Shown piece by piece: positions 11,291-63,407 of a stretch of 64,000 nt of DNA. Numbering within the stretch: the stretch's first letter is position 1; each line of letters starts with the position of its first letter. The stretch lies in assembly GCF_964355755.1 (NCBI RefSeq), contig NC_092675.1, forward strand, positions 26,942,912 through 27,006,911, read 5' to 3'. Under the pieces are notes generated by a model that saw nothing but the letters and a program-made list of their open reading frames with translations, was not told where the DNA came from and ran no database searches. The translations under genes and the position numbers were made by a program. Source of the DNA: Antedon mediterranea (taxonomy: Eukaryota; Animalia; Echinodermata).

Positions 11291-12651
11291 TCATACCACT
11301 GCGACGCAAGTACGCGTCATCACTGGGCTTTCTACAAAAGATGATTGTTCGCCACGTTTGATTACGTATACTACTGCTTTTGCGGCAGGTACCAGTTTAG
11401 TAGAGCAGCCACACGCTAATCCACTTTCACAAACATTACTTGAACATGTCGACTCGTAAAATAATTGCTTCTTTACAAATCCATTACGAATAGATGGCTA
11501 TAAAACGAGAAATAAAAATAGATACGTTAAATAGGCCTACAACACAACATCCTTCATTTGCAAAACCTCTTGCTTGTGAGGCACAGATGATGTTTTTTGA
11601 GAAAAAAAAACTAACCTGTGCTATGTAAACGAGATCACCTCGTTTGTTATAGGAAAGAAATAACATCTTGTTATCGTCCCGATTTACTCTACACACGCTC
11701 GTGCCAGGTTGAGCTGTCGGCGTTATTTCACGACGTTTTCGTCGTAAAGGTTTGCCGCCAAAACTAAGAGATGGAAAAGATACAGTTTCTTCATATGCAA
11801 CTGAAACGGAACTTGACTGCCTGTATAATAAAAACATACTTTTGATGTAAACCTTATAGGAGGAATAATAATTTAGGTATAGGAAGCAGTCACCACGTCA
11901 ATTATAGAAATCTGTAGTTAAATTGGTCGTCAGCAATTAACGCTGTTTTGTTGTCTAAAGCTGTATAAGTCAGTCAATGGTTAGGCCTAAATACTGGATA
12001 GAAGCAGTTTTCAAATAGTGTAAATTTTATTTTCTTTAGCTTTTGCAGAGGTGGCATATTATTTAGAGAGGTTAAGTTTATACATAAGTCTTTGTTTTAT
12101 CTCGAAGTTATATTCAAGATTCTACAAAGACGGAAACAGAAAAAAAACCCCATTTTTGGACTTTCTAATTATGTTCCGACTGTATCCAAATTGGGCTCTA
12201 GTAGTGGGATCATATAATTAAGGCGATGTAATAGGCTCTGAATGATTTCTAAAACCTATTATTTGAAATCTCAGAATATGTTCTCCAAATCAAAATTTAA
12301 AGCAAAACAATAAAATAAGTAAAAATAGTTATTTTTTATACTAACGTACATTGTTGATTCTTGGCACGTTCCAACATCATAAGGATTTTCAAAGCTTCCA
12401 TTGAATCGATCAGCCAGTGCATTGAGCTGCGTATCTGTCAGGTGTATAGGTGGTTCCTGCATTTCAAATACACATTTTTCTCGTTGTTCACAAGGTAATA
12501 GTTCTAACACTTCAGCGATGTTCAACAGTTTCTGTCTTTGTGCGGGCGTTAATTCGACATTCCGTTGACTATCACAGGTTCTTTGACAATTGACAAGAAT
12601 GATATTAAACATTATCATTATAATTACAACGATTCTTGAAGATACGACCAT
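11291..12651 (-). CDS. secreted neurotrophin/Spaetzle-like cysteine-rich precursor, paralog A1 (237 aa)
   Basis: Exons 12651-12350, 11820-11616, 11497-11291 (phases 2,0; GT-AG). Signal peptide MVVSSRIVVIIMIMFNIILVNC, furin-type site RRKRR, mature domain TSVCRV...NKRGDLVYIAQ|PSIRNGFVKKQLFYESTCSSNVCESGLACGCSTKL...AKAVVY...MTRTCVAVV*. Confidence 0.88.
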
Positions 12652-14341
12652 CTTGATGTGAAAATGAAAACAACAAATGTGATAAAAACACACTGAACTC
12701 AATGAATAAGTTAAGATTAACTTGGTTTATAAGTTTAGTTTTGATGGTTAAAATGCATTTCCTCCGGTAATTACGAAAGGTTATTGTAAGATTAGGAATA
12801 CACAGACCCCGCGATTAAGTTATTACAGCTAGAATAAAAGAACATATAATTTAAAGGAGAAAGAAATGTTTTCTATCCGTTCATAGAAGGATTTGGATAT
12901 TCCTTCCCTAGATATGCTTGCGGTTTTCTTACATTTAAAATGTTATCATAAAGAAGAGGGTATAACACGTGGAAGAATGGAATTTCACCCAAAAATAACA
13001 AGCCAAAAATTAACAAAGTAAATTTGTTTTGTATTTGAATCAGGCAATATACTATAATACTTTTTATTCAAGTAAAGTTAAGTAAATTACTTTTTTTTTT
13101 TAATTAAAATACAGTACATTGCAAAATAAAAGATCAATTAATATTGATATAACACCTTTTAACCTCCAATGACGGTTGGTATTTAATTCCATTTCCGTTT
13201 TGAATATATCAAACCGGATCTTTAAAACAATTCAAATTCAGTAATTTGAATTTAGTAATATATCAAATATAACGTATAATAACAAGAAGTCATAATTAAT
13301 CGTTCACAATTATTTTATGATATGTATTATTTTCCTTCGTCCTAAATAAATAAAATACAATTATTATAAATATTACTGTACTTTTTCATTAACCTTTTTA
13401 CTAATATCTGAGTAAAATAAGTAACTGCCCCACCCTTCATTTCAATCCGTGTAATTTCTAATCATTCTCAATTTCGTCGTCGTTCGCTTTTCTGAAATAG
13501 GCCTAACCATCTTCTTATGACATTTGGTAGTATTCCATTACTTCCAGTTGATATTATAATAGGCCTACTACAAATTTTTTTAAATTTTTGAGATCATCGT
13601 CAACCTTTAACCAGACATATGTCCTAGTATCTATTTTTTTTTCTTTTTTTTAAAGACTTTCGACTACCTTTAGACTGCCTCTATAGTATGGTCTTTTTGT
13701 ACCTATCAAGAACTGATGGAAAATGTTGACCATTATGTTTCGAAGGTGCATCATACATACATGTATATGTGTGAATTTTAGTCAATTATCAGTAATAGGG
13801 CCTATATTCAATTTAATACCGTCAGAAAGAGTGACTTGATTCTATTACCATTATATAATATCATGCATAGGCTTCTTGCCCTCATTATAACCAAACCTTC
13901 CAGAATTAAGAATTTGATAGGTGTAGCACATGTGATTCTGATCACGGAACTTGCCTATACTGGACAATCTGCCAATCCACACTCATGTTGATTTGTTCAA
14001 TCAATGACCATGTATGTAGATTATAATTTGAATGCGTGCTCTAATTTTGAGTAAACAGTTTAATATTAGGTCCTGTTACTGGATCATAAATGCATCAAGC
14101 TATAGCACCTATTATTACCTTGGATCAAGTTCTTAAGACCATTCATAAGTACCCGATTTCTACAACCACAAAGTTAGGAGTTTACAAAAAAAATAACCAT
14201 CCATAATTACGTTTAACAGAAGCAGCTATAGATGGAACCATTTTATGACAAAATAAACATTCTTTAATTGTTATATATAAATATAATATTGATAAAATAA
14301 AAGTTAAATTGTTCAAAATTAGCTGTAATTGCTGAATCTCT

Positions 14342-15141: not shown

Positions 15142-15394
15142 GGCATGGTTAAACGCCTGCCATAAACGCGTCATCACACAATCTAAGTTGACGAACGGAT
15201 TAGTTGAACGCCTGCCATAAACGCGTCATCATACTATGTATGTTGACGAAAGGATTAGTTGAACGCCTGACATAAACGCGTCATCACACAATGTATGTTG
15301 ATGAAAGGATTAGTTGAACGCCTGCCATAAAGGCGTCATCACACAATGTATGTTGACGAAAGGATTAGTTGAACGCCTGACATAAACGTGTCAT
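15142..15394. repeat. 55-bp minisatellite (~4.5 copies) overlapping the stop codon of paralog A2
   Basis: ggattagttgaacgcctg at 15197, 15252, 15307, 15362 (period 55), degenerate copy at 15142. Confidence 0.9.
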
Positions 15395-16759
15395 TACGGT
15401 TTGTTCTGAAAATGTACCTGTGCCGTCTCTAATCAAGTACACAACGCACGTTGAGGAAGGGATTAGTTCGGTAGAGCAGCTGCAAGTAGATCCGACACAT
15501 TCAGTGTCTAAGCAAGTTGATTCGTAGAAGAATTGAGCCATTTGGAAACCATTTGCAGATGTGGGCTATCAACAAATTAAAAAAAAAGTTTCGATTTAAA
15601 AAAAAAATTTTAATCATTGGATTATTATACTGCTTATTGAAAGTAAACATGAACTAAGAAATATACAGATATTTTTTTGTCCGAATCTGCTCTAACTTAT
15701 TTTGAAGGACTATAAGACTAATATTCGTACATCATACACTTCATAAAAATAATTGGTGTTGATTCTAGAAATGATTACCTGCGGAATGTAAACAAGCTCC
15801 CCATCTGTGTTATAAGCAATAAACAATTGTTGGTTATTTTCCACAACAGCCCGACAGACAGACGTTCCAGCCGTCTGTCGACGTCTTCTGCGCATTGGTT
15901 GGTATTTTCTAAAAGTAATAAGTGTTAAAGTTAACTTTAAATTATATGCATAAAAGGGCGTAAATAATGTGATAATGCTGAGAATTTATAGAGATTTAAA
16001 GGTAGGCCTGCAGCTGAAAAAAATAAAAGTCAACCAAGTGGTCTCTACCATCAACGCAATGACAGTGTATGAAGAAAATAATTAAACCAATCTTTACTTT
16101 AATCCAGAAAAAATAGTAATCTTTTTAAATAATATTTTGTGTTTATATGAAATGAACTACTTTTACTTAATAATGGAAACTACTACAAAAGGCAGCTTAC
16201 AAACAATTATTTTACAAACACATATCCACATATCAATGAATACACAATAATAAAAACTATAACGATTAGATTATAGTTTTTGTTTAATATATAAATTCAT
16301 CGGCTCTTTGTGGAAGTGGTATGAATTCTTAAGACAACAATTATAAGTGTATATAAGGCTTTCATGAAATAAATAAGTGATGCAGAAGAACCATATTTTG
16401 AGCCTTCTACATGCCGGGAAGAGATTTATGCTAGGCCTTCCAGAAACTTACTCTTGTACTTGTTCAACACATTCAGCAATATCTACAGGGTTTCGAAAAC
16501 TTCCTTTGAAGCGTTGGGCTAAAGCAACAATCTGGGAATCCGTAAGCTGTATAATAGGCTGCGTCAGATTTAGCATACATTCCAATCTCTCGTCACATGG
16601 CAAGCTATCTAGATAGTCTGCAAATATTGTTAGCGTGTTCATTTGCTAGGTTGTTAGTTCAACACGCGGGAAAACCGAAGTGGTCTCAGTACAACAACAA
16701 GCATAGCTTCCATGCGCGAAAATTACAACCAACGCCAAATACTTCAGTAAGTATATCAT
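15365..16759 (-). pseudogene. neurotrophin-like paralog A2 with in-frame TAG at codon 38 (pseudogene, null allele or sequencing error)
   Basis: Exons 16759-16452, 15908-15779, 15565-15365, splice sites intact. MIYLLKYLALVVIFAHGSYACCCTETTSVFPRVELTT*QMNT... with TAG at 16648-16646 where A3 has Glu; RRRRR site; mature TSVCRAV...YIPQ|PTSANGFQMAQFFYESTCLDTECVGSTCSCSTELIPSSTCVVY...MTRLCQAFN*. Confidence 0.82.
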
Positions 16760-17809: not shown

Positions 17810-19150
17810 TTATGTAAATGCATTACATCTACGGGTCATTATGGTCTGCTGTGTAAATGTATTTGTGTTCCCCTGAATTACATGTACAATGCATGTTGAA
17901 GATGGAATAAGGTCAGTGGAGCAGCTACACGCAGGACCATCGCACCCAGCATCCAAGCAAACCGATTCGTAGAAAAACTGTGCCATTTGAAACCCATTGC
18001 CTGTTGTAGGCTGTAGAAATAGAAAGAGTGTTTGACTTCATTAATAAATGAAATGAATGTTTTTGTTTAAATTATGTTAATAATTTATATTAGACCTATA
18101 CGTAATAAAGTTTGGTTCCAACTCTTGCCCGCAAGGAGATGACGTATGCGCAACGCAAGTGGGTTGACCAATCACAAACGAATGTTTGTATGATCCATCG
18201 CGTCGTGATTGGTAAATTTACTTAGCGGCGCGCTTAAGTTCTTGCGTTTCGTCCTAGTGGGAACCAAGCCTAAGCCTACTGCTTGTTGAAGTACTGTGTT
18301 TTAGTGAATGCGGTACCATGTACTTACCTGTGGAATGTACACAAGTTCTCCATTTTTATTGTAAGCAACAAATAGCATTTTATTATCCTCCACAGTTGCG
18401 CGGCACACTGGAGTTCCATCGGTTGCTCGACGTTTTCTGGATGGTCGAGGTTGTTCAATTCTATTAGATAATAAAAACAGAAAAAGCAAATTCAGTTTGA
18501 TAAATTAGTTTTAAACAACAATGTAGACCACACTAATGCATTTCAGTCTGCAAAAATGTTTTGAACAAACTTTAAGTTTAGAAAGAAAAGTTCGGCAGTG
18601 CATCAATTTCAGTGAATGAATTATAATACCTTTTTATTCAATTTAAAGAGACACAATGAGAGAAATAATCTGCTGTTTTTAGTCTACACTAGATAACTCG
18701 GAGTTTACAGACTAAAAGTTGCTATTGTAGACTTCTGCAGTTTGTCAACTGATTTACATCAAACCTTTTGCTAGGCTAGTTTTAAAGAATTTATCCAGAC
18801 AGTGGAAACATTCGCTAAAGTAAAGCTAAGTAAAGTTTGATTATAGCAACTCACATTGGTTCTTGACATGGTCCAACATCGGAGGCTTCCTGGAAACTTC
18901 CACCATAACGCTGAGCTAAACCAACCATTTGTGAATCCGAAAGTTGTATAGGTGGTTGTGTCATATTGTAGGTACGGTTCATTCGTTGATCACATGGTAA
19001 ACTTTCCAAAAAATTCGCCAAGTTTATCAGTTGCTGTTTTTGTTCGTTCGTTAATTCAACTCGTGGAAACACCGAAGCAGATTCCGAACAACAACAAGTT
19101 GCATAACTTCCATGTATAAATGTTAACATCAAAATAACAACCTTTAACAT
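17810..19150 (-). CDS. secreted neurotrophin/Spaetzle-like precursor, paralog A3 (209 aa)
   Basis: Exons 19150-18855, 18460-18328, 18010-17810 (phases 2,0). Signal peptide, SRKRR site, mature GTPVCRATV...NKNGELVYIPQ|PTTGNGFQMAQFFYESVCLDAGCDGPACSCSTDLIPSSTCIVHV...MTRRCNAFT*. Confidence 0.88.
18111..18270. mobile_element. MITE with aagcttggttcccactag-type terminal inverted repeats (degenerate copy in A3 intron 2)
   Basis: ttggttcca...tgggaaccaa termini and internal gaccaatcac/gtgattggt inverted block shared with copies at 32137, 50679 and 54315. Confidence 0.7.
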
Positions 19151-20329: not shown

Positions 20330-21196
20330 TTTTTAGTCGCGTGGACGCGACTCAATAGTTCACTATGTCGGTCGGTCGGTCTGTCGGTCTGTCTGTCGGT
20401 CCGATATCACTATGCGGTTTATCGCTTTTCTGTACTTTTTGAACTATTTTGATGTACAGACAAGTTTTAATTATGTCGGTCGGTCTGTCGGTCGGTCGGT
20501 CGGTCGGTTGGTCGGTCCGGTATCACTTTGCGTTTTATCGCTTTTTCTGTACTTTTTGAACTGTTTTGATGTACAGACAAGTTTTAACTATGTCGGTCGG
20601 TCGGTCGGTCGGTCCGGTATCACTTTGCGTTTTATCGCTTTTTCTGTACTTTTTGAACTGTTTTCATGTACAGACAAGTTTTAAAGTACTTTTCTGAGAC
20701 TTCTGTACATTTCTGAGACTTCTGTACATTTATAAGACTTATGTACATTTCTGATACTTTTTCTAAGGCATTACATTTCTAAGTTGTTCTGTCACTTTAA
20801 GTTATTATATACGGGCTGTTGTGTCATTTAATATTCTATCTAAGCTTCCTAACAGAAAAGAGTTCACTGTGCTTGTTTATTAAAAGAGCAAGAACAACAG
20901 CAAGAAACAGCAAGAGCAAAGTTTATATATTATATAACATTTTATTCATGCAAAACAAGAAACAGCAAGAGCAAAGTTTATATATTATATAACATTTTAT
21001 TCATGCAAAACAAGACAGTTTGCAGCATGGTCAGAGTAGTAAGGCCAATGTGTAAAGAGTTCAAAACCTCTCTCTGATCTGATGTAAACATGATCAATAA
21101 GTCCCCCCTTTTTCATGGGTTGGATATTGCACAGACTGACTTTTTGAAAGTTCATTTTTTTCTGAGAGCACGCGAATTATGGCTGTTGGCCTTGTT
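20330..21196 (+). mobile_element. DINE/Helentron-like non-autonomous element with (GTCG/GTCT)n and internal repeats
   Basis: 5' ttttagtcgcgtggacgcgact hairpin, three tandem ~115-bp cores with GTCG microsatellite, 3' cacgcga...atggctgttggccttgtt. Confidence 0.7.
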
Positions 21197-22697: not shown

Positions 22698-25600
22698 ATG
22701 TTGTCTATTTTCCAAATGCTATTGTGTTGTGTGTCAATACCGGGCACCATGTCTTGTTGGAGTACATCAGATTGCCCCGTGTGCCCCGTGACAGACTCTG
22801 ATGGAGAACAGAAGCCAACTACTACACAGCCCAGCTTAACTTTGATCTCCGGTGTAGAAGCATCACCACCCATACTCTCGAATGAACAGTCAGACATCCT
22901 TCGACAATTAGGTGACCAACTAGACAGCCTGTCGTGCGAAGAATTAGAGAATACTATCTATAATACCACACGACTTCCTTTACCACCGATAGAGTTAGAT
23001 GTCAGCCAGGCCATGATTCTCATAGACATTTTTCCTGAACTTAAAAAAACCAATGCAGATAGGCCTACAGAAAACGAGATAAATGCTTGTAACGAGTTTG
23101 AGTAAGTTTAAATATTAATTCATAATAAATATAAAACAATTATAAATGTTGAATGTCGACAATTCAGGCTATAGATTTACACTATCATTCATTATTAAAT
23201 TTGGTATGTTTTCAAGTATTTATTTATTTGTTTAGTTTATGTATTACGATGCCTGAATTCTTTAAAACAATGTAGGCCTAACTGTATATATCTTTCTTTT
23301 TTACAGAACTGACTTTTTGAAAAGTGTTAACGCCGCAAACGTGTGTGCATTTGATACCGCAGATATAGCCCTTAACCTTGCGCTAGATAAGCATGGATTC
23401 CCCGTTTATGTTACACAGGTAGGCCTCGCTAAGTAGTTTTCTCACCCACTTCTCTTGATTTAGACTGATAATAATAAAGCCGAGTGTTTCGATATTTGAG
23501 GGAACTTTCGATTTTCGACGACCGACTATTTACTCTAAAATACATGTTATTAATGGGATACAATGTTAAATTTAAATAAAATTAATTTTTGTTAACCAGA
23601 AACAAGTTCAATATAGGCCTAGAAATATTATTAAAAATATCCTTCGTGAAAACGCGTGAACACCACGTCCGGTAGGCATTATTGTTTTTCCTATAAGGTT
23701 AAGGCTGAAACTATAGAGGGCCTGAATCCATACATGAATGTTCATGATGTGACGGAAACCCTGGAAATAATTTTTACGCAGTTTAACCGAAAATGATCCG
23801 TGCAAAAACACAATAAAAATAAAAACGTTATAACATATTATGTTGCTTATGTTTCTGAAATATTTATTAAATGAATATATATTACAAATTAAAACTCACA
23901 CATAACCTTACAATCAATAGCTATGCCTACATATTAACGGATTCTGCCAAAAAAGAAAGAAAATTAATTCAGCAACGCGACAACGTCAGGCTAGGCCTAT
24001 AGCTAGCGTACGATGTTCGTACGCTACCGCTCTTTACCAGCTAGGCCTACAAAACTAAGCCCAACTAGGCCTAGAAACGTCTACGAGAGAAATTCCGACG
24101 CGAGCTACTTAGGTAGTGTATTGTTTTTCTCTTTTGTCATAATAGAACGCACACTGATGACAAGAAATTATCTAAGATTTAATGTTTTTAAAGTTATATA
24201 ATTTATATGCATTATTTTTACAAAACGCCACAAATTGCAGGTCTAGTGTCTTGAACATCGAGAGAAAAAGAGTACAGTAACTTACTTCGAAGAATATCAC
24301 AAGAATGAGTAATCCGCGATTTTCCCTGTAACATAACAGTAATATTGTCCATGTGGAAGGGCGCCGCCATAAGTGAGGATGTATCTGGGATATATACAAC
24401 TTTTTGTGACGGTTTCACTAATCAAAGGCTGGACCACCGGTAGTATTTTCATGATAAAAAATGTTATCAACTACATGCCAACATCATGTTAAATGCTGTT
24501 TGGATATTTAATTGTTTGTTGGATGCAATTTATTTAGTAAAAACTGCCGTATAAAAAATTCGCTTTATCAACCGGGCGCTACGATAGCGTGACCGGGCGT
24601 GTTGGTGTTTACGCGTTTTCACGAAGGATAGTTTAATAATAATATTCCTATATTTAACTTGTTTCTGGTAAAACAAATAAATGTTAATGAAATTTAACAT
24701 TTTATCCTATTAATAACATGTATTTTATACTAATTTGTATCATAAAAACAATACTTAATTTACCGGGCGTAGGGTAGTACGCGGCAATGGTAAAGAATAG
24801 GCCGTGCTGAGTAACGATTCGTTGATTTTTGGTGTTGTTGTGTTAGGCCTTTTTTGTGAACTAATTTAGCATGTTAGTAAATAATTGTCTGTAAAAGTGA
24901 ATGTACACTAGGTTGTTAATAAATTTGTATTATGAAATAGTTTACAATTGCAAAATATATTATCATAATTCTATTTAATGTGACATGTATAATATCTATC
25001 AAATCAAGTCTTATTTGGTATGTATACATCCGCCCTTATGAGGGCGGGCATCACTCTCTGGAGCTCTCTGTTGCAAATTTCTCATGCAAAAATCGCGGAA
25101 TACTCATTTTTGTGATATATATTCTTTGCTTACTCCGTAAATCAGACAGTGGGTTTTGCCAGTATCACGTCATGAGCTCAGACATGCATCATGAATATGC
25201 ATGATATATGAACGCCCTCTATAGTTTCTGTCTTAACCTAATAGCAAAAAAAATAATACGCCCGGTAGCGCCCGGTTGATGAAGCAAACTGTTTATTCGG
25301 CAGTTTTTACTAAATAAATTGCATTAAAACAAACAATAAATATCCAAACAGCATTTAACATAATGGTGGCATGACATTTTTTTATCATAAAACATTATTA
25401 TAGCATATATCTCAGCCTAAGCCCAATCAAATCATCCTATCCAAATCTTTAGTCTGAGCCCACTATAAGCAAGTTGCTCAGGCGAGTAAATTCTGACAAT
25501 GTGCTGCGTAGGCCTAGCTAGGCCTATAAACTTTTAATTTTAATTTTTAATTGATATTTCCAAAAGATTTTGTAATAGCGAACATGTTTTAGTTGCCATT

Positions 25601-26249
25601 TCTCGAAAGAAAATGTTACGCTTGATCGAACGAAAACACGGCAGGTCAGTTTGTTGTGTGACCCGCACGAGGTCATCCCATGCATATTTAATGAGTTTCG
25701 TCGCGACAGACTCAAGCGTGTGTATTGTAGTGTATATCCTATTTCGTTTTCTATTCCTTATATGTATCAGATATACAGTATGTAAGTTATTTTCAGAAAT
25801 AAATTTGATCAAATCAAATCATCATTATGTTTTACTATTGTTTTTATAAGAACTTTTTTCTTTGTGGGTTTTTTTTGTGAGTCACCCTGCACCAAAGATT
25901 ATAATAAAGCGCCGTATTAATTTAAAAAAAGTTATTGATATTTTAAGTATACATTGGTAGAAGTATTTATTTAATCGAAGAATATTCGTAATGTGTAACG
26001 TAAATTTCATCTTTAACAAATTTAGTTTTTTTTGTGTTATATTCACACTCACAGGACACGCGATACAACCTTCTACAAATGTTTCAAGAAAACCTTTGCT
26101 TGAGTACTGACTGCGGGGGAGGCTTACAATGCTCTTGCAACAATCAATTGACACACAACGCAAGGGCTGTTGTAAGTTATCTGAAAGGGAATGATTTCAG
26201 ATTCTACAAAGCAGACATACAGTTACGTTCTTGTTCAGGTTTTGTATAG
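22698..26249 (+). CDS. secreted neurotrophin/Spaetzle-like precursor, paralog B1 (236 aa)
   Basis: Exons 22698-23101, 23307-23418, 26055-26249 (phases 2,0). Signal-like MLSIFQMLLCCVSIPGTMS; mature ANVCAF...LALDKHGFPVYVTQ|DTRYNLLQMFQENLCLSTDCGGGLQCSCNNQL...ARAVVSY...IQLRSCSGFV*. Confidence 0.87.
23537..25395. repeat. interleaved inverted repeats (foldback-type insertion) in B1 intron 2
   Basis: 23537-23665 is inverted at 24603-24728; ~24450-24600 is inverted at ~25260-25395; ~24270-24380 resembles the reverse of ~25020-25130. The block is absent from the paralogous B2 intron (575 bp versus 2636 bp). Confidence 0.7.
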
Positions 26250-43570: not shown

Positions 43571-43608
<38 letters not shown>

Positions 43609-43776: not shown

Positions 43777-43826
<50 letters not shown>

Positions 43827-43987: not shown

Positions 43988-44042
<55 letters not shown>

Positions 44043-45602: not shown

Positions 45603-45687
45603 TTTTTAGTCGCGTGGAAGCGACTCTATAGTTCACTATGTCGGTCGGTTGGTCGGTCTGTCTGTCTGTCTGTCGGTCTGTCTGTCG

Positions 45688-45722
<35 letters not shown>

Positions 45723-46432
45723 GGTCCGGTATCACTATGCGTTTTATCGCTTTATGACCTTATCTTGATATCAGTTTAATCTAGCTAAGTCAATTTTTCA
45801 CAGAATATTCCTTATGGCCAGGAATCGATGTGGTTATGTTTTCACGGCGCGCAATAAAAAATTACGCGGTCTACGCACGATTTAACGAAATCACGTTTGT
45901 AATCATATCTTAACAACCATGAATCACAATTAAATAAAATTTGGTACTCATAAATTTCAGGGCATAAATCATCATATGGCAATACAATTACGTGCGTAGC
46001 GCATGTAACGCATGCGTACGCGTGCTTAAAATTTTCAAAATTTATTTTCGATGAAATAAGAGTACGTTTCAGGCAATTTTAAGCGTTTACAAAATTGCCA
46101 TGAGTGCGCAGATTTTTGCGCGCGCACTGTGCGTTAAATGTTATTGCGCACTTTTTTTGCCCGATTTCTGTTTTCTTGACTTACTTTTCAACTCGAAATT
46201 ACGTTATACGAGCACGTCAAAAGTGACAGGCTACGCACGTGTAAATTAAAAAAATATAAATGTTTTTAAACATTTCAACATTTTTAAACATGTTCAGTAA
46301 TTTCGGTCAGTATAGTTCACTATGTCGGTCGGTCCGTCTGTCTGTCGGTCTGTCTGTCTGTCGGTCTGTTTGTCTGTCGGTCCGGTATCACTATGCATTG
46401 TAGCACGCGACTTAATGGCTGTTGGCCTTGTT
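45603..46432 (+). mobile_element. DINE/Helentron-like non-autonomous element with (GTCT/GTCG)n
   Basis: tttttagtcgcgtggaagcgact 5' hairpin, microsatellite, 3' cacgcgacttaatggctgttggccttgtt; nearly identical to 57466-58241. Confidence 0.8.
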
Positions 46433-50840: not shown

Positions 50841-53723
50841 TAACCAGGGGCCCAGGTACCTACGCCACTGTTGAGAATACATACATTTACCTTTTCACCC
50901 TTTATCGGCTTTGCTCTGGAGCGTGTATTTCTTCTATTTATAGTTTTGTTTGTATTAACTTACAAAAAATACATAAAAGATACATAAATCAAACTCTTTA
51001 TTCGGGGCAACGAAACACGCTGCGTTTTATTCATTTTTTATTTTGCACAATACAATAGAGTCTTCGATGCGTTATAACATTTCTCGGAAAAGTTCTTTTT
51101 CCGTCGTTTCGCCCTTTTTGTGAAAATAATGATTAAGCAACAATCACAACAAATAATAATTGCATGATAACAAGACAACACGCAACAGACGCACGGAACT
51201 GATGTCATCATCCGGCAGAATCACTTAGTCATCTAAACATGAAAACATTGAAACTGAAATATATCATATATAAAAAAACAATATAAATTGATAAAGAATG
51301 TTAGATGGAGTCTTATTTCATTTGGAGTGTCTGTAGGCCTACGTTACAGTATTGACAGAATTACAAAACGGATTGACTAATAAAACAAATGTAATGTTTC
51401 ATGAATAAATCGTTTTTATTTGAATTGTTTTTTATTATAAAAATAAAAAGAATATTTGGAGATGAATTATTTAATGATTTCTTAATACTAGTTGAGATGA
51501 CCTACGATAATAAGCATTCAGATACAGAAGAGAGGTGACGGATATTTTGGTAGTAAACCGGGAAGAACCAGCCGATTCTCGGTACTGTATCTATTTCCGA
51601 AGTAGGCATATCATAGGAATATTTGGTAATACAACATCACATGTGTTTCACATGAATCTAGAGTAACCTAACCCTTCACCTAACCTTACATGATACAGGC
51701 ACTACATGTGATGCTGTATTACCAAGGCCTATGATAGATAGTATGTGGAGATACAACTCTGGGAATCTGGTGGAAGAACTCCTTCGTCGATCAGCTCATA
51801 GAGATATTATATAATATCTCTATGATCAGCTCCAATCCAACGTTTCTTTCATATTGTTTACACCATTTGTTCATTAATCATGTATTACATTCTTCCTGCA
51901 AAGGAAATGACTTGACACTATACGGTAAACACCAGGCGGTAGGTTAGCTTGTTTGTACAACAACAAGTAATATTTACTTTAGTATTTCTACATTATTTCT
52001 AGATACAAAAGAGCTTTCTTGGAAAAGTTCGTTTCTTAACGTTTTCTGTAGAATATTCTTTTGTTTACTAACTTTAAACTTTTGTGAAATAAGCGTCTGC
52101 GCATGCCCTATCGTCGCCATCATTTTCCTTATAATTATTGTATTATATACAGTATATTTTTATATAACTGTTATTGCACGGCATCATCTCTGTCTGCGGA
52201 TGTACTTGAGTACATGGGTTATTTGCTACATCATGATTGTGCGTCAGGGAGAGCGCCCATCGGGGAGGATCGACCATGTTTGTCGGTGAGAAGAAATTAT
52301 ATTTCCTGATAAAAATAAATATTGATATCTAATATTTATTTCGATGTCTCTTCGACCTCTGGCGGCCCAAGCCAATAGAGTAAGCCTCTCCCTCACCACT
52401 CACTGTCGGTCGGGCAAATCTTGTCACCAAATCACCCCTGTTTTATATAATAATTATAGTGGAACACATTTCACAGGTAACTTGCATTCAGTATTTTCAT
52501 CTGCGTATACCTGTTTTATACGGGTGTAGGCCTACGTGTTACAGACGTGTCAATTGCAACATTAACAACATAATGGTCTTATATAGGATTTCTCATACAT
52601 CCAAAAAATAAGAATTATGGAATTCCCCTTTTACCAGCTGCATTCCGGTGTAAATCGGAAAACATACTAATGTCAGAGGAATGCATTTACGTCATGAATT
52701 ATGACAATTATATACCAGTCATAAAGCCATTAAAAATGGTGTTTGGATGACGTAGCTGGTGTGGAGAGGTTACCTTTACAAAGGCATATTACAACAGGTG
52801 TGTTTATTACAGTATTACGGTTGGAACGTTACACAAACGAATATTATCAATGATTTTCGTTTGATGATCCATTGTCATGAAATCCTAGACTTGCTCCAAG
52901 TCTGTATTTATTGTCTTTTTTTATGTTATTCCACACGTCGTCGTTTTGATTTTTGTCTGAAAATACGTGACTTGTACTTTCTCAATAACACATACGGTAG
53001 TCAATGCATTGGTATATAAGACTGACTCTGTTTATATACTACTTTACTACAGTACTATTTAATACTCTTCAAAATAAATTGTCATCAATCAGAATAAAGT
53101 AAAACTCATAATAGTCCAGACAGTAACACAATAACAATGCGCATGCTCAATAGATTATTTGTTCACTAACTGTTATGTAATTCTCTTCTTAAATTATGTT
53201 ATGAACAATACATACGTACATTATATTGAAATCGTCTGGTAAAGAGTCAAACTTAATTAATCCCTTTATTAGGCATATACGAAGTGTTCTGAATGTTGGA
53301 TAGATTTAGACGACTCATCTGATCCAAGGACGCCTGCCCCACCTACCCCCACCAATAATTCCCAGAAATTGTATTGTTGTTTGGCCTAAATTTATGCGTT
53401 TTGTTCAATTACTGATCGGTTGAAAGATTCACACCACGATATATTTCTTATAATGACGGGATTTGTTTGTATAATCATAGGAATTATGTATATTTAGATA
53501 TAAATAATCCAAGGTATAATAGTACCATTTGTACCGATGCCTACAATAACACAGTTGTTTATTACACAACCAATTGTTGTTGAAGTATAATAATAATTCT
53601 CATCCATAATAAACGATAATAAACGAAAGTAATAAAAGCCTAATATGGCATTTTAAGTCACCATCCGTCTACTTGGAAACTATTTAAGGTGATACCGTAG
53701 CGCAACACTTAAGCACTGATACA

Positions 53724-55525
53724 ATGATTGCTGTTAGTTTGATGTTGTTTGCACTGATTCAGTGCTCCCAATCATGTCGGAGCACAACTGATTGCACTGA
53801 AACAGACGTGATTCCAAATGATCCAGTTGTGACCGCTCCTTCGTTGACTGTTGAGCAAGCAGAAATACTGAACAACCTTTATCAAGAACTTATGCAGCTA
53901 CCATGTGATGAACGTCGGGAGAGAATCTATAACACGACAGTGCCGCCGATAAATTTGACCGAAAGCCAAGGGCTTGCACTCTTAGATTTGTATCCTGAAT
54001 ATTTTAAAAATAGAAGCGACACCGGTGACGTTTCCAACAAAACTGGAAGTTCATTTCTCAGTGAAAGGGCGCAAGTTCTATCCATTATTGTTTCTATTTC
54101 TAATTATTTTAATTGAACATGTATTCTGAAATATGATATTTTTGAAAAGGAAACCCCACTGATTTATCATTAGAACAAACCTTAAGCAATTAGTGGAAAC
54201 TTTAGTAAACAAATTCGAACTGCTGAATGAATTATAGAACAACATGCCGACAGCTATTAGTTATAACTTAGCAAGGCCAACATGAAAATAACTACAACGT
54301 AACGTAACGTACATAAGCGTGGTTCCCACACTAGCGACGCAACGCAAGGACGTAACACAACGCAAGTGAATTGACCAATCACAAGCCATGGCTTATTCGC
54401 TTGTGATTCGCTTGTCATTGGTCAACACGCTTGCGTTGCGTTCACGTCCTTGCGTTACGTTCTAGTGAGAACCAAGCTTGACGTGCATATCATATAATAA
54501 TCATAATCATCATAATCAAATAATCATCATATAACGTACAACGTAACGTAATCGTAATCATCATAATCAAATAATCATCATATAACGTACAACGTAACGT
54601 AATCGTAATCATCATAATCAAATAATCATCATAACGTACAACGTAACGTAACGTAACAAATAAACATTTTTTTTTTCAAATTTCAATTAATTTCTATAGA
54701 ATTAATTAGAATAAAAACACGTACATCCCTAAACAGACAGGTAATGATGTATTTAACTCAAGCCAACAATTTATCTTTGTCTTGCACCTTTATATTTTTA
54801 TTTTGCACCTTTATATTTGTAAATTTTTAAGATGTTTGTCCTTTTTATGTGTACATTATCATCTTAATATTGTTTTAATTCAGCCTTGTGCTGCGATTAC
54901 GGTATAGTGAATAAATAAATGAATAAATAATGAATAAATAATTTTTTTTAAGTAGGCCTAATTAGTTTACAAAAGTAACTTTCATGTTTTCATTTTTTTT
55001 TCACATAAATGAAGGGCGACTGTTGCTAACATATGTCCATTTGACTCTATGCTAGTTGAATATAATCTGGCTTTGGATGGAAATGGAGACCCAGTTTACA
55101 TTCCTCAAGTAAGTAGGCTATACTGACAACCCGAGTTGCTCTTTAAAACCACAGTTGTTTAATGACCACAATAAAATTGTAGTTGGTTGTTTTATATTTG
55201 AGACTTTAACTTTATTAGGCCACCGTCACGACTAATTATAAACTTTTTATTCGAAAACCCCAACATAATAAGTGTCGGATATGTCTTCTTTTTTTTTCAG
55301 ATTCCAACTGAAAATCCACCATTTTACGTACTCGATCAAACGTTTCAAGAAGACAAGTGTGCATATGTCGAATGTTCAGGCCAATCTTCTTGCCAATGTT
55401 TGGAAGAGCTTGGGCACACTGATCGCGCAGTCGTTAGTTATCTAGATGTACCACCAGGAACAAGTGCATTTTATGTCACAGACATAATGCTAATAGATTG
55501 TTTAGCATATGATATAAATGCCTGA
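53724..55525 (+). CDS. secreted neurotrophin/Spaetzle-like precursor, paralog C1 (221 aa; needs a GC-AG first intron)
   Basis: Exons 53724-54070 (donor GC|GCAAGT where C2 and C3 have GC|GTAAGT), 55015-55108, 55301-55525. Mature ANICPF...NLALDGNGDPVYIPQ|IPTENPPFYVLDQTFQEDKCAYVECSGQSSCQCLEEL...DRAVVSY...IMLIDCLAYDINA*. Confidence 0.8.
54315..54479. mobile_element. MITE (same family as 32137) in C1 intron 1, flanked by (AACGT)n and ATC-rich repeats
   Basis: aagcgtggttcccacactag...ctagtgagaaccaagctt; tandem repeats at 54495-54660. Confidence 0.75.
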
Positions 55526-57456: not shown

Positions 57457-57465
57457 CTGAACCGG

Positions 57466-58241
57466 TTTTTAGTCGCGTGGAAGCGACTCTATAGTTCACT
57501 ATGTCGGTCGGTTGGTCGGTCTGTCTGTCTGTCGGTCTTTCTGTCGGTCTGTCTGTCTGTCGGTCCGGTATCACTATGCGTTTTATCGCTTTCTGACCTC
57601 ATCTTGATATCAGTTTAATCTAGCTAGGTCAATTTTTTACAGTATATTTCTTATGGCCAGGAATCAATGTGGTTATGTTTTCACGGTGCGCAATAAAAAA
57701 TTACGCGGTCTACGCACGATTTAACGAAATCACGTTTGTAATCATATCTTCACAACCATGAATCACAATTAAATTAAATTTGGTACTCATAAATGTCAGG
57801 GCATAAATCATCATATGGCAATACAATTGCGCATGCGTACGCGCGCTTAAAATTTTCAAAATTTATTTTCGATGAAATACGAGTACGTTTCAGGCAATTT
57901 TAAGCGTTTACAAAATTGCCATGAGTGCGCATATTTTTGCGCGCGCACTGCGCGTTAAATGTTATTGCGCACTCTTTTTGCACGATTTCTGTTTTCTTGA
58001 CTTACTTTTCAACTCGAAATTACGTTATACGAGCACGTCAAACGTGACAGGCTACGCACGTGTAAATTAAAAAAATATAAATGTTTTTAAACATTTCAAC
58101 ATTTTTAAACATGTTCAGTAATTTCGGTCAGTATAGTTCACTATGTCGGTCGGTCGGTCTGTCTGTCTGTCGGTCTGTCTGTCTGTCGGTCCGGTATCAC
58201 TATGCATTGTAGCACGCGACTTAATGGCTGTTGGCCTTGTT
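57466..58241 (+). mobile_element. DINE/Helentron-like non-autonomous element, copy of 45603-46432
   Basis: Same termini and near-identical body; inserted in a T run. Confidence 0.8.
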
Positions 58242-58546: not shown

Positions 58547-60155
58547 ATGATTGCTGTTAGTTTGATGTTGTTTGCACTGATTCAATGCTCCCTATCATGT
58601 CGGAGCACAACTGATTGCACTGAAACAGACGTGATTCCAAATGTTGCGTCCGCTCCCTTGTTGACTGCTGAGCAAGCAAAAATACTGAACAACCTTTATA
58701 AAGAACTTATGCAGCTACCATGTGATGAACGTCGGGAGAGAATCTATAACACGACAGTGCCGCCGATAAATTTGACCGAAAGCCAAGGGCGCGCGCTCTT
58801 AGATTTGTATCCTGAATATTTTAGAAGCGACACCGGTAAAATTTCCAGCAGCAACACTGAAAGCTGTTTGTTTCTCAGTGAAAAGGCGTAAGTTTCTTTC
58901 TATTATTGTTTACATTTCCTATAAATGTACTAAGTTATTATTTTATATGACCATAACATTCTCTAATATGATACTACCCTACTGATTTGTCTGAAAACTG
59001 CTGATTAATCATAAATAGAACATTTTTTTTTTGGAACAAGAATGCAAAGAATTAAATGTTAATGTTAAATGTTAAAACATTAATTAATATATGGTACGTC
59101 CCTAATAACAGACATGAAATGGTGGTGTATTTAACCAGAGGCAACAGTTTTGTCTTAGGTTTAACTAAATAGCAATTTTTTTTAAAGTAGGTCTATTGTT
59201 TACATTGGTCATTTTGAGGAGTATATTCACTACAAGCTATGTTTTCAGTTAGGCTCCTCCACTTTATATACGTTATTTGTAAAGGGAAATAAATTATATA
59301 AAAAACTTTCATATTTGTTTGTACTTAATGAAGGGCGGCTACTAGTAACGTATGTTCATTTGAACCTATTGAAGTAGTTTATAATCTGGCTTTGGATGCA
59401 AATGGAGACCCAGTTTACATTCCTCAAGTAAGTATACTGACAACCCGAGTTGTTATTTAACCAATTGACTGCCAACTTCGCGTTTATCATTGTCCGCAAA
59501 TGATCTAGGCCTATGTCTAGTAGGCTACTACTACTATTATTAGCTAGCTTGGCCTAGACCTTGCTAGCTGTACAAATATTGCTAAAAACCTTATAATAAA
59601 AATACATTTGCATGTAGAAATGTCTGATGACCATTTGTTTTATTATTTATTTGTTCAAATTATCAATATTTTATAAGTACATTTGTAAAATAATACTAAC
59701 CTGTCAAAAAATGTGTTTATTCTCGCATTGATAAAATGAGCTGACAAGCAGTACCTCTCAGAAATGTACTGGCAGTACAAAACAATGGGCCAATAAACAT
59801 CAGGCAGTCAATGCATGGTTAAACACCAGAGACATTCTCTATTGGCCGCGGATCACGAACAATTCGAAAACCCCAACCTAATAATCAATAAATGTATTTC
59901 TTTACTTAACAGATTGTAACTGAAAATCCACCATATTACGTACTCCATCAAACGTTTCAAGAATACTTGTGCGCATCTGACCAATGTGCTCCAGGCCTAT
60001 CTTGTCAATGTTTGCACGAGCTTGGGCACAGTGATCGCTCAATCGTTAGTTATCTGAATGCAACACCATCTGAATGTGCATCAGGAGGGCTAGGATGTAG
60101 GTTTTATGTCCAACCTATAATGCTAACAGACTGTTCAGCATATCTTATTATGTAA
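58547..60155 (+). CDS. secreted neurotrophin/Spaetzle-like precursor, paralog C2 (225 aa)
   Basis: Exons 58547-58887, 59334-59427, 59913-60155 (phases 2,0). Mature SNVCSF...LALDANGDPVYIPQ|IVTENPPYYVLHQTFQEYLCASDQCAPGLSCQC...SECASGGLGCRFY...MLTDCSAYLIM*. Confidence 0.88.
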
Positions 60156-62012
60156 ATGCCAACCAATTGTTCAGCTTGGTATATACTTTTTAGAACGATC
60201 TACATTTTTAATTTCAATGATTAGACCATGGAAGAAAAAATATTTTTGTTTTCCCTCCATGATTAGACCCAGTGTGTTTTTATTTTACCTAAGTTGTTTC
60301 TTTGGATATTGAATATAAACAATATGATATGTTTCATCATATTAGGCTAAATTACTTTTAAACAACTTAACACTACACAAATAAGATAAATATGAATAAT
60401 AAATATAAAATGTTGTATAGGTCACATAATCTTCAAATAAAGCAATAACGATGTTATTGTTCTTCTTGATCATGACGTCATTTGACTGGACAGTGTTATT
60501 AGGATGGAACATTTCTGATTTATGTTTTCTGTAGGAAAACGTATATATATCGTAGATCGTTATCGTCCGTAGTAGCCTATAAATGTAATGACAAAAAAAT
60601 ACGATGTGCCCATATATGGACATGATGATGTCATATCACTACCATATTTGGGTATATCACTGCCATATTTGGGCACATTACACTTATTTTGTCAAACTAG
60701 TTTGATAGTGTAGACAGATCTTAAGAAAGTTTGTGATCAACATACCCAGTAGCTTGCTAGATAAAGTGGTTTAAATAATATATAATAAAATAATATATAT
60801 ACATCTAGTTTTTGGGCTATCCTGGTCAAAAGTTATGTTATTTTTCTGCTTTTATTGTTTATTCTTATAACGGTACAATTTTATACAATTTCTAACGTTA
60901 TTGCTTGCAAACTTCTTGTTGATATTGAAATCATTGTTTTGTCAAATAAATGAATTAACACTACTTGAAAATCGAGTAATAATGTTTGATTATAAGATAG
61001 GGCCTATATACAATTTGCAAAATTGCTTATGCGAAATATGATATGAACTTTGACACAGGCAATAAGACTGAATCCGGAGGGTAGATCATTCTTTAAAGGA
61101 AAACGTCACTTAGCTAACTGCATGCCTTTCAGTATGCTATAAAAACAGTATTTAATGAGTTTAACAGTTTTCGGAACGAAACGAAACGTCACTTTCAGTA
61201 TGCTATAAAAAAACAGTATTTAGTGTGTTTTCGAAACATCATTATAATAATAATAATTTTATTTCTGTCTTCACCTTTAATGAAAATGACAACCACAACA
61301 GAAGTGTTTGGAAATCCTTAGTCATATACGTTAACTATTGTTATCACCGAATTCACATAAAATAAAGTCTTCGTCTTAAAAAAATAGCCAGGCCTATTAG
61401 TTAGGATCAATTGTGTCATTACTAGTAGATTAGAACTTTTATTTTAGTTTATAATGAACAAACACTACTATTCTTTTCTGGTCCAATTCTCCATGCCTAG
61501 AAGAAATAAAGAAACTTTTCCGCATTCCGATGTAAATCGGAAAACATTACTGCCAGATGAATGTTATTATATTCGTCATTTAAGATATGGGTTTGATGAC
61601 GCAGCCATCTGCATCAGTAAACGAAAGTAATTTTATAAAAAAAAAGCATCGCACAAAATACGTCAGCTATTATTAAGGCTGTTAATATTTTTGATTAAAT
61701 ATTAACGGCTGATAACTCATTAGATCACTCAGGTTAATACGTCATTATCATAGAGCTTCATGAGATAATACGCTTAATGTTCAAACTGTAAAATTAATTA
61801 TAGGGTATAACTATATAAATAATTTAATTGTACAGTAGAAACATCTCCCTCTATTGTTTTAATCAATGAAAAAGACAGATCCTATCCAGGGGCACCCGAT
61901 TAATTACAAAAGCCTTATAAGGCATCTTGTGTCACGGCCTAGAATCTACTCGGAAACTATTACAGGTGTTGTAGGATTTGATGTGAGTATACTCAATTAC
62001 TGTAACTGTACA

Positions 62013-63407
62013 ATGATTGCTGTTAGTTTTATGCTGTTTGCACTGATTCAATGCTCCCTATCATGTCGGAGCACAACTGATTGCACTGAAACAGACGTGA
62101 TTCCAACTGATTCAGTTGTGAAACCTCCTTCGTTGACTGTTGAGCAAGCAAGAATATTGAACAATCTCTATCGAGAACTTATGCAGCTACCATGCGATGA
62201 ACGTCGGGATAGAGTCTATAACACGACGGTGCCGCCGATAAATTTGACTAACATCCAAGGGCTCGCGCTCTTAAAATTGTATCATGAATATTTTAAGGAG
62301 ATGAGTCATAATAACAAAACGGGAAGCTGTTTTTTCGGTAAAAGAGCGTAAGTAAGTTTTCATAATTGCCTCTTTATTTAGCATCATGTTGTTGGTGTCA
62401 TTCTAAATAATATATAATATAATATTAACACAATTTTTGTAGACCTTAGTTTGGTTAGATTTAACTTATTTTGTTTTATTTCACTTCAATGAAGGGCGGC
62501 CAATATTAACGTGTGTTCACTGGAGGTTGTCAACGTAACTTTGAATCTGGCTTTGGATGGAAACGGAGTGCCAGTTTACATTCCTCAAGTAAGTTTTATT
62601 GACACGCTAGGTCTTCTAACGAAATACTCTCATCTATATATAAATTATGGTTAATTCCTACATAGGCGAGCACAATGGAAAAAGAGAACGTCCTTCAAAC
62701 CTTTTTACCCGAGTCATTATCATTCCGAGAACCATTATCTACACTTCCGAGCGAAGTATATACAAGTAGGCTACTTAATCTGCTCAGCTACTGTAAACCT
62801 AAACTGGTATATATTAACTGATTTGACCTTTGTATAACACTTTTTAATAGGTACTATATAACTAATATGATTTTTTTCTTTAATTTTATTCAATGTTTGT
62901 CTCTTTATAAAGCATGAAATGCTTGACGCTTAAGAAATACCCACAGAATCCGTAATTATAGTTGTAAATATTTGAGACTGTACTTTATTAAGCTACCGTA
63001 TAATCATCACGTTGTAAACTTATGACGAAACCCAAACATAAAGCTCTGACTAAACTATCAAACTAATTTGACAAATAACGTAGTGATATGACATCATCAT
63101 GTCCACATATGGGCACATCACATTTGTTTTGTCACGTAAAGTTTGATAGTGTAGACAGAGCCTAATAAAGAATAATTGTCATTAACAGATTCCAGATGCA
63201 AAACCACCAGTTTACAAATTCAAACAAACATTTCAAGAATACAAGTGTGTATCTGTCGAATGTGCTCCAGGCCTATCTTGCCAATGTTTGGAAAAACTTG
63301 GGCACAATGATCTCGCAGTCGTTAGTTATCTGGATGTACCAGCTGGAGAGAGCGCATTTTATGTTAAAAAAATACTGCTAAATGATTGCTCTGCATATAT
63401 TATGTAA
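62013..63407 (+). CDS. secreted neurotrophin/Spaetzle-like precursor, paralog C3 (215 aa)
   Basis: Exons 62013-62347, 62495-62588, 63189-63407 (phases 2,0). GKR site; mature INVCSL...LALDGNGVPVYIPQ|IPDAKPPVYKFKQTFQEYKCVSVECAPGLSCQC...LAVVSY...ILLNDCSAYIM*. Confidence 0.88.

Follow-up and report, generated by a model that had tools for sequence, protein, structure and literature searches.

Eight paralogous three-exon genes lie in tandem at 11291-63407 of the window analysed here, a 64-kb stretch of the genome of the crinoid Antedon mediterranea (all positions are numbered over this whole stretch). Three of them (A1-A3) are encoded on the minus strand and five (B1-B2 and C1-C3) on the plus strand. 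The interpretation that we favour, at a probability of roughly three in four, is that they belong to an unnamed ambulacrarian family of secreted and cleaved proteins, whose C-terminal domain has the predicted fold of nerve growth factor (NGF) and which would act as receptor ligands, probably as dimers. They are likely to be divergent signalling ligands of the neurotrophin type that multiplied in crinoids. Comparisons of structural models support their assignment to an unnamed, divergent and tandemly expanded ambulacrarian branch of the neurotrophin superfamily, which would lack the cystine knot and stand nearer to the neurotrophins than to Spaetzle. An earlier note, made on this DNA from its letters, had described the genes as ligands of the neurotrophin/Spaetzle superfamily. 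The neurotrophin side of this description is sustained by the predicted fold and by a sequence-profile match to the neurotrophin NT-3 (E 0.005); the curated Pfam models lent it no support, and the fold proved much nearer to the neurotrophins than to Spaetzle (structural Z 2.7). All functional statements made below are predictions.

Gene models of the array

Three types of exon recur among the stop-to-stop open reading frames (ORFs) of the window, the GC content of which (0.30-0.35) is that of AT-rich eukaryotic DNA. Gene models were built from these ORFs by mapping five NCBI proteins onto the window, reading the junctions base by base and splicing the resulting coordinates. In all eight genes the two introns are in phase 2 and then phase 0, and splicing gives a single frame. 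Borders of the GT..AG type are found in 15 of the 16 introns, intron 1 of C1 (with a GC donor in the assembly) being the sole exception. The array starts at 11291, the first base of the A1 stop codon (minus strand), and ends at 63407 with the end of the C3 stop codon. A tblastn search of the window with the eight proteins recovered exactly the 24 exon loci and no others (E≤0.01), and the matches of twelve relatives from other loci or species were confined to the eight genes. The number, place and strands of the genes given in the earlier note, as well as the shared three-exon layout with phases (2,0), are therefore borne out by the spliced models, the former also by tblastn. Its account needs correction for A2, which is interrupted at codon 38; the other seven genes have open frames. 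The models and their two irregular sites are as follows.

A1, 11291-12651, minus strand: 237 residues; exons 12350-12651, 11616-11820 and 11291-11497 (including the stop codon), with GT..AG borders; cleavage site RRKRR; identical to P0001
A2, 15365-16759, minus strand: 212 codons; exons 16452-16759, 15779-15908 and 15365-15565; cleavage site RRRRR; premature stop, otherwise intact
In-frame TAG of A2, 16646-16648, minus strand: codon 38, in exon 1, where A3 has Glu (three-frame reading and alignment)
A3, 17810-19150, minus strand: 209 residues; exons 18855-19150, 18328-18460 and 17810-18010; cleavage site RKRR; seventh Cys in the mature domain; identical to P0005
B1, 22698-26249, plus strand: 236 residues; exons 22698-23101, 23307-23418 and 26055-26249; intron 2 of 2636 bases; monobasic site K
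B2, 30448-31900, plus strand: 231 residues; exons 30448-30830, 31013-31130 and 31706-31897, followed by the stop codon; cleavage site KKR; identical to P0008; the protein chosen for structural modelling
C1, 53724-55525, plus strand: 221 residues; exons 53724-54070, 55015-55108 and 55301-55525; monobasic site R
Intron-1 donor of C1, 54071-54076, plus strand: GCAAGT, a non-canonical GC donor, polymorphic
C2, 58547-60155, plus strand: 225 residues; exons 58547-58887, 59334-59427 and 59913-60155; monobasic site K; two extra Cys in an insert of the mature domain; identical to P0004
C3, 62013-63407, plus strand: 215 residues from the Met at 62013; exons 62013-62347, 62495-62588 and 63189-63407; cleavage site KR; P0003 is the same protein from an upstream start, which adds an N-terminal extension

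The exon-1 ORF of A1 is 98% identical to P0001, a protein named "uncharacterized protein" at NCBI. For A2 and B1 no annotated protein was matched in the protein searches. B1/B2 and C1/C2 lie within segmental duplications that are 82-85% identical. A GT allele of the C1 intron-1 donor exists, since the DNA run X2 has T for C at 54072 (depth 47.6 of 47.6); the same run carries an in-frame insertion of 3 bases behind 54048, inside C1.

Run X1 is only guessed to be RNA, and it is its spliced contigs that reveal transcripts. A contig of 1078 letters contains the joints 58887>59334 and 59427>59913, which are the exact introns of C2, and a contig of 470 letters contains 62347>62495 and 62588>63189, the exact introns of C3, all with GT..AG borders. 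The DNA run X2 covers the same places of C2 and C3 and has none of these four joints. These exact joints show that both genes are transcribed and that their splicing is that of the models; the transcript check of the junctions that had been proposed gave exact agreement, limited to C2 and C3. The isoform X1 annotated at NCBI (P0002) joins exon 1 of C1 (53724-54070) to exons 2 and 3 of C2 (59334-60155), skipping exons 2-3 of C1 and exon 1 of C2. This joint is not found among the 15 joints listed for the runs X1 and X2 (150 more lie beyond these), which we do not count as evidence; nor do we count the cover of the region of C1 exon 1 (53600-54261) by run X1, which is near nil.

Precursor architecture

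The N-termini of all eight products are hydrophobic (best 12-residue Kyte-Doolittle mean 2.3-3.2), in agreement with the signal peptide that the earlier note had ascribed to them. Eight Cys are invariant across the eight genes: one behind the signal sequence, one in the pro-region and six in the mature domain. The conserved pro-region that had been claimed is also there; in subfamily C its core reads L-T-x-E-Q...L-P-C-D-E-R...Y-N-T-T...P-P-I-x-L-T-x-x-Q and includes the invariant Cys, and an N-x-S/T site occupies one conserved place of the pro-region in seven of the eight genes. A basic cleavage site, said before to be present often, turned out to be general, the residue before the mature domain being K or R in 8 of 8 genes. 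This site is of the furin type RX[KR]R in A1 (RRKRR), A2 (RRRRR) and A3 (RKRR), dibasic in B2 (KKR) and C3 (KR), and monobasic in B1 (K), C1 (R) and C2 (K); among the 21 family proteins (the relatives in other species are described below) an RX[KR]R site occurs in 13.

The mature domain comprises 94-112 residues, a range somewhat wider than the ~95-110 given before, and its six conserved Cys (spaced 39-44, 5, 5-6, 2 and 32-34) agree with the minimum of six that had been noted; the A1 and C3 motifs quoted at that time are likewise present in the spliced models. Additional Cys occur in the mature domains of A2 and A3 (a seventh) and of C2 (two more). Alignment A6 of the family has four invariant Cys and one conserved in ≥90% of the rows, the second Cys of a CxC pair being missing in two species. 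As read from sequence only, this is the layout of a neurotrophin precursor, with signal peptide, pro-domain and a basic site before the C-terminal ~100-120 residues. The relevant section of PMC2586362 names a signal sequence, a pro-domain, a basic site and a cystine-rich dimerising domain as features of both neurotrophins and Spaetzle, and the precursors of the array fit this description.

Predicted fold of the mature domain

An AlphaFold2 model of B2, built on an alignment of 18 rows, reached a mean predicted local distance difference test score (pLDDT) of 76.5 and a predicted template modelling score of 0.70. Its mature domain (pLDDT 88-94) consists of long beta-hairpins, with strands at 145-151, 154-157, 162-165, 176-182, 194-209 and 216-230. 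The pro-region is predicted to form three helices (pLDDT 77-96), and the linker 115-138 around the cleavage site to be disordered. An earlier run with 5 sequences was unusable (pLDDT 37) and did not enter the fold searches.

In the Foldseek search of the PDB with the B2 model, neurotrophin entries account for all 25 matches listed for ranks 1-33 (E 1e-4 to 2.5e-3, probability 1.00, template modelling (TM) score by target 0.41-0.67, 17-23% identity). The titles of 24 of them name NGF, NT-3, NT-4/5 or BDNF, and the 25th is 3ij2, which we take to be proNGF with p75NTR. Lower in the same search come coagulogen (3.6e-3), a nuclear magnetic resonance model of human NGF (6yw8, 0.046), mosquito Spz1C (0.18) and chains of IL-17 (0.2, with low probability). 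VIA-align, which does not lean on Foldseek, was run against 48,161 representative chains and returned 28 chains at Z≥2, three of them at Z≥5. Its best and most informative matches were these (rmsd, root-mean-square deviation).

NGF 1sg1_A: Z 7.6, rmsd 2.9 Å, 87 residues aligned
Coagulogen 1aoc_B: Z 7.4, rmsd 4.4 Å, 143 residues aligned, across pro-region and mature domain
3ij2_A: Z 7.2, rmsd 2.8 Å, 91 residues aligned
IL-17A: Z 4.3
Noggin: Z 3.7
IL-25: Z 3.4
Sclerostin: Z 3.0
PTTH: Z 2.8
Spaetzle 3e07: Z 2.7

The top three thus stand ~3 Z units above the rest, and the whole domain is covered. The alignment-free ESM Atlas, queried through its models of P0001 and P0003, placed the mature domains of A1 and C3 with clusters of the Spaetzle/NGF/IL17 clan at 0.89-0.90. 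Structural TM scores by query were 0.62-0.72 to NGF, NT-4, BDNF, spaetzle-5 and an unnamed, mostly echinoderm cluster of 65 members. A1 and C3 are only ~30% identical and yet find the same Atlas families. Overall, the mature domain is predicted to adopt the NGF fold, and the structural check suggested in the earlier note (AlphaFold with Foldseek) came out on the side of the neurotrophins as best matches.

Sequence-profile match to neurotrophins

Searches of PDB sequences with family profiles of increasing depth gave a match to neurotrophins that strengthened from 4 to 12 to 18 rows. The 4-row profile of mature domains found NGF at E 0.62-0.78 in 4 of the 17 listed rows, the rest being DUSP10 in 12 entries and one surface protein. 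With the 12-row profile, NGF or NT-3 made up 11 of 25 listed rows (E 0.21-1.1). The profile of 18 full-length proteins reached NT-3 at E 0.005, 0.015 and 0.016, venom NGF at 0.11 and BDNF at 0.15-0.17; neurotrophins here were 6 of 13 rows, and coagulogen had E 1.1. No Spaetzle chain appeared with any of the three profiles. The alignments start at the cleavage site and place Cys I and Cys II of the family on Cys I and II of the neurotrophins, and the conserved family motif A-x-[DN]-x-x-G on its neurotrophin counterpart; opposite the neurotrophin Asp, subfamily A has Asn, and B and C have Asp. Equivalents of Cys I, II, III and V are conserved among the 21 family proteins, in which a CxC pair follows Cys III at a distance of 5-6 residues; in P0017, P0018 and P0022, all from sea stars, the position of Cys V is taken by CC. 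We regard this profile match to NT-3, NGF and BDNF as weak but specific.

Distribution and history of the family

When 1.84 billion representative proteins were searched with a profile of the family, 16 matched at E≤1e-3. Four are genes of the window itself (P0001, P0004, P0005 and P0008), and P0013 is another Antedon paralogue, located outside the window on the same 31.7-Mb contig. The crinoid Anneissia japonica contributes seven, of which four share a single 866-kb scaffold, and four further species contribute one protein each: the hemichordate Glandiceps talaboti, the sea cucumber Holothuria leucospilota and two sea stars, Asterias rubens and Patiria miniata. P0022 of Asterias amurensis is a cluster member of the A. 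rubens match. The family therefore has members in the crinoids Antedon and Anneissia, in three species of sea star, in one sea cucumber and in one hemichordate. All of its proteins are named uncharacterized or hypothetical, and neither a sea urchin protein nor a named neurotrophin nor a Spaetzle protein is among the 16. Word-indexed protein searches yielded only P0001 among 8 candidates with the A1 exon-1 ORF, five proteins (all Antedon) among 577 candidates with the exon-1 alignment, and only P0005 itself among 15 candidates with its mature region. We found no description of the family in crinoids or sea stars in the main texts searched, taken from PMC and bioRxiv and including a crinoid neuropeptide paper (PMC9793003), while supplements (e.g. 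Dataset S1 of PMC11087794) could list such sequences.

Amino-acid identity amounts to 42-60% within subfamily A, 84% within B and 67-74% within C; between subfamilies it is 26-33% (A versus B or C) and 36-40% (B versus C). Maximum-likelihood trees were computed under LG+G4 and LG+C20 PMSF for the 8 genes of the window together with 12 further rows, 20 in all. Longer proteins of the same clusters stood in for the short isoforms P0009, P0011 and P0014, and P0022, which nearly duplicates P0017, was omitted. In both trees the window genes group with the four Anneissia proteins of the 866-kb scaffold (support 100/99 and 90/97), Anneissia P0007 is the sister of A1-A3 (100/99 in both), and each of the three subfamilies is monophyletic (99/93 or better). 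The tblastn identities suggest pairing P0019 with B and P0020 with C. P0013 groups with Anneissia P0012 in the LG+G4 tree (89/81), and in the PMSF tree neither is resolved.

Since P0013 sits elsewhere on the Antedon chromosome, the family is present at two or more loci in crinoids. From the placement of the window genes with Anneissia proteins it follows that the subfamilies A, B and C probably predate the Antedon/Anneissia split, and the sequence relationships place the origin of the extra copies inside each subfamily on the Antedon side. The "lineage-specific expansion" of the earlier note accordingly applies to the duplications inside A, B and C; it does not apply to the family, and probably not to the subfamilies either, these being older than the split and the family having relatives among the sea stars and in one sea cucumber and one hemichordate.

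Selection

The ratio of non-synonymous to synonymous rates (dN/dS) is 0.15-0.45 in A and B pairs, and among the A2-A3 changes in the pro-region the non-synonymous ones are significantly depleted (p 6e-7). In the mature domains of subfamily C it is 0.79-1.35, and for C1-C2 a Fisher test of dN/dS>1 reached no significance (p 0.41). The changes in subfamily C are enriched outside the predicted strands (25 of 40 positions versus 21 of 56, p 0.022). Identity within C is 67-74% over the full length versus 62-63% in the mature part, meaning that the pro-domain is the more conserved of the two. Overall, the pattern fits functional genes. What we claim for subfamily C, on these sequence comparisons, is relaxed or diversifying evolution and not proven positive selection; the concentration of changes outside the predicted strands would fit a diversification of binding loops.

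Proposed mode of action

Judged by the hydrophobic N-terminus only, the products would be secreted as pro-proteins. The pro-domain, in the B2 model a folded helical unit, would likely serve as a folding aid or a mask, because its conservation equals or exceeds that of the mature domain. Cleavage after the conserved basic residue would then free the mature domain. The furin-type site of A1-A3 would allow constitutive processing, as in neurotrophins, and the monobasic site of B1, C1 and C2 would need another protease; this split between sites suggests two modes of activation. Two of the disulfides would be I-IV and II-V as in NGF, with a local third bond, predicted within C-x4-C-x5/6-C-x-C, presumably replacing III-VI, Cys VI being absent. 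The mature NGF-fold domain may act as an extracellular ligand, probably in dimeric form. From the closeness of the fold, Trk/p75NTR would be our tentative choice of receptor, some other or unknown type is possible, and a receptor of the Toll type seems doubtful.

Alternative explanations

Several observations weigh against the reading of these genes as neurotrophin-type ligands. None of the 18 exon ORFs, P0001, 4 mature domains and 13 relatives exceeded the threshold of the Pfam models for NGF, Spaetzle or IL17, so the check by profile hidden Markov models (HMMs) that the earlier note had proposed failed. The best NGF score, and the sole sub-threshold NGF match among the 13 relatives, was that of Anneissia P0007 (14.3 bits, E 0.047, versus a gathering threshold of 27 bits). 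Full-length P0001 (phmmer) and a 5-row profile found no neurotrophin among PDB sequences, only unrelated weak matches, and the best E-value obtained from sequence is only the 0.005 given above. None of the 21 family proteins has a CxC in its last 15 residues, where neurotrophins have Cys V-x-Cys VI. Since Cys VI is missing from all 21, neither the III-VI bond nor a true cystine knot can form, as far as the sequences tell. The NGF signature between Cys III and IV, quoted in a passage of PMC2772990 as [GSRE]-C-[KRL]-G-[LIVT]-[DE]-x(3)-[YW]-x-S-x-C, is likewise found in 0 of 21. Because both this signature and Cys VI are absent, the family by its sequence is not a canonical neurotrophin. The B2 model draws on only 18 sequences, and VIA-align values of Z<8 can reflect a common arrangement. 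A2 is broken by its in-frame TAG in this assembly, and the transcripts seen are those of C2 and C3.

The proteins could instead work in the manner of Spaetzle, as inactive pro-proteins with a bound pro-domain that are cut at a single basic residue by a serine-protease cascade and signal through Toll-type receptors in immunity or development. In B1, C1 and C2 the P1 residue is monobasic and no furin site is present; superfold and pro-protein logic are common to both, and the helical pro-domain is conserved, in subfamily C more so than the mature domain. The Asn of subfamily A recalls Spaetzle and sea urchin Sp-NT2, which have Asn at a position where Asp is strict in canonical neurotrophins (PMC2772990, in the parts on this motif). 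To this may be added the tandem expansion (cf. Spz7/8 of Daphnia, mentioned in the same article) with dN/dS of 0.8-1.35 in subfamily C, the homologues of pattern-recognition receptors, including Toll-like receptors, that occur in large multigene families in the sea urchin (PMC3367398), and the spaetzle-5 rows of the ESM Atlas (TM 0.64-0.65), of which the one for C3 reaches the Atlas bar for a family name. The fold match itself is weak, however (Z 2.7 for 3e07; Foldseek E 0.18 and TM by target 0.63 for Spz1C), compared with Z 7.6 and E 1e-4 for NGF. No Spaetzle chain came up in the PDB profile searches, and PF16077 had no match at E≤1 or E≤10 on the exon ORFs, P0001, mature domains and relatives. 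The terminal CC-x-C of Spaetzle is missing, and furin-type sites are found in A1-A3 and in most relatives; we consider this alternative unlikely. A non-signalling role like that of horseshoe-crab coagulogen, a clotting or matrix protein in which cleavage exposes a polymerisation surface under a helical segment, has for it the combination of an NGF-like sheet with such a segment, the widest coverage of any match (model residues 15-231, including the pro-region, at Z 7.4), Foldseek and profile matches (E 3.6e-3 and 1.1) and a basic P1 residue in all eight genes. The superposition is poor, with rmsd of 4.4 Å in VIA-align and 13.1 Å in Foldseek at 15-16% identity, the sequence profile favours neurotrophins by two orders of magnitude, and the linker 115-138 is predicted to be disordered. 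A far larger number of disulfides and two cleavage sites characterise coagulogen; the array proteins show neither feature, and we give this role very little credence. In the portion of PMC2586362 that treats it, coagulogen is stated not to dimerise.

Divergent cytokines of the IL-17 type would have in common with the array the cystine-knot superfold. Invertebrate types short of one disulfide are described in a passage of PMC11087794, sea urchin IL17 genes of 1-3 exons form tandem arrays (PMC5457136, in its gene descriptions), and IL17 clusters appear among the ESM Atlas feature rows at 0.87. The structural matches are weak (Z 4.3 for IL-17A and 3.4 for IL-25 versus 7.6 for NGF; Foldseek E 0.2, probability 0.15-0.5, 8-12% identity), Pfam IL17 (PF06083) gave no match, and the sea urchin proteins have eight conserved Cys according to the same descriptions, versus six here. 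This identity, which the C-x4-C motif and the sea urchin arrays had raised, was rejected on fold scores and architecture, and it is the least probable of the readings considered. To our knowledge, a conserved pro-domain with a basic cleavage site is not an IL-17 feature. The NGF-like model might also be an artefact of a shallow alignment, with the genes encoding an unrelated Cys-rich secreted protein, for example one with an adhesive or antimicrobial role. The failure of the 5-sequence AlphaFold2 run, the small alignment behind the second model, the missing knot Cys and NGF signature and the failure of curated HMMs all speak for this. Against it, three partly independent lines agree: the PDB profile, AlphaFold2 with Foldseek and VIA-align, and the ESM Atlas for two paralogues of ~30% identity; we find an artefact quite improbable, though a little less so than the coagulogen-like role. 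The reading as divergent ligands with an NGF fold remains the one that we prefer.

Other features of the window

Upstream of the array, exon fragments similar to ADAMTS occur at 6828-10741, and a probable mobile element and several repeats lie between or beside its genes.

6828-10741, plus strand: ADAMTS-like exon fragments, with a TSP1_ADAMTS domain at 9152-9424 (E 5e-12) and an ADAMTS cysteine-rich match at 6828-7187 (E 7.6e-4, under the Pfam cut-off)
44172-45065, minus strand: ORF of 298 codons of the tyrosine-recombinase (Phage_integrase) family (E 7.4e-8)
43436-44036: tandem repeat of 211 bases, adjoining the recombinase ORF
34500-42900: tandem array of ~five units of ~1.8 kb each, 83-97% identical, with short ORFs that have no Pfam match
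45603-46432 and 57466-58241: dispersed repeat with a (GTCG)n-like microsatellite, 91% identical between these copies and found also at 20337-20684; one copy sits just upstream of C2
9514-9891 and 28533-28754, both minus strand: ORFs with a similar C-terminal motif and no Pfam match

The segment 43436-45065, between the B and C genes, is by its sequence probably a Crypton- or DIRS-like mobile element. The C-terminal motif of the last two ORFs presumably resembles the ends of retrotransposon ORFs.

Relation to known systems and significance

With the neurotrophins (NGF, BDNF, NT-3 and NT-4; PF00243) the array family has in common a pre-pro layout in which a basic site immediately precedes a mature domain of ~100 residues, the closest match in fold, an NT-3 profile alignment running from Cys I through II and, in the B and C genes, the Asp at the aligned position. 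It differs from them in staying under the Pfam threshold, in the absence of Cys V-x-Cys VI and of the signature loop between Cys III and IV, and in its CxC after Cys III and the structured helical pro-domain that is predicted for it. Its genes form an eight-copy tandem array instead of a few dispersed genes, and their mature domain is split by the phase-0 intron. This intron had been taken in the earlier note as a sign of difference; it is present, but it is not unprecedented, as sea urchin Sp-NT2 and a Daphnia neurotrophin are multi-exon according to the gene descriptions in PMC2772990. Among published proteins, Sp-NT2 and the acorn-worm NTa and NTb come nearest; these are the ambulacrarian "second" neurotrophins of that article, with which we compared the family by their description only. 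The likeness lies in the ambulacrarian distribution, the multi-exon precursor and the Asn at the Asp30 equivalent (subfamily A). As described there, Spaetzle, Sp-NT2 and NTb have an additional Cys next to Cys V, and the sea-star P0017, P0018 and P0022 have their CC at this place. Unlike the array family, Sp-NT2 is described as keeping the six knot Cys, and the 16 profile matches include no sea urchin protein.

As far as PMC2772990 goes, one or two neurotrophin genes per genome are known from invertebrate deuterostomes (Sp-NT and Sp-NT2 in the sea urchin, two acorn-worm expressed sequence tags and one amphioxus gene). Antedon has at least 9 genes of the present neurotrophin-fold family (the eight of the window and P0013) and Anneissia at least 7, all of them missed by curated HMMs and uncharacterized in the databases. 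The NGF fold is predicted to persist in them without the third disulfide of the knot, and the array provides a dated series of duplications in which one subfamily is near-neutral in its loops. In its most far-reaching form, to which we assign a distinctly low probability, the finding would be a previously unrecognised knot-less branch of the neurotrophin superfamily, ancestral to Ambulacraria and joining a neurotrophin-like mature domain to a structured, coagulogen-like pro-segment. In crinoids it would have divided into a furin class (A) and a monobasic class activated by a protease cascade (B1, C1 and C2). The monobasic class would then be a deuterostome counterpart of Spaetzle/coagulogen activation and would feed expanded echinoderm receptors of innate immunity or regeneration.

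The family bears on the relations among the neurotrophin, Spaetzle and coagulogen lineages. Crinoids are classic models of regeneration, and echinoderms have very large families of innate-immune receptors; for this reason a diversified set of orphan secreted ligands, such as these genes are predicted to encode, would offer a concrete start for the pairing of ligands with receptors.

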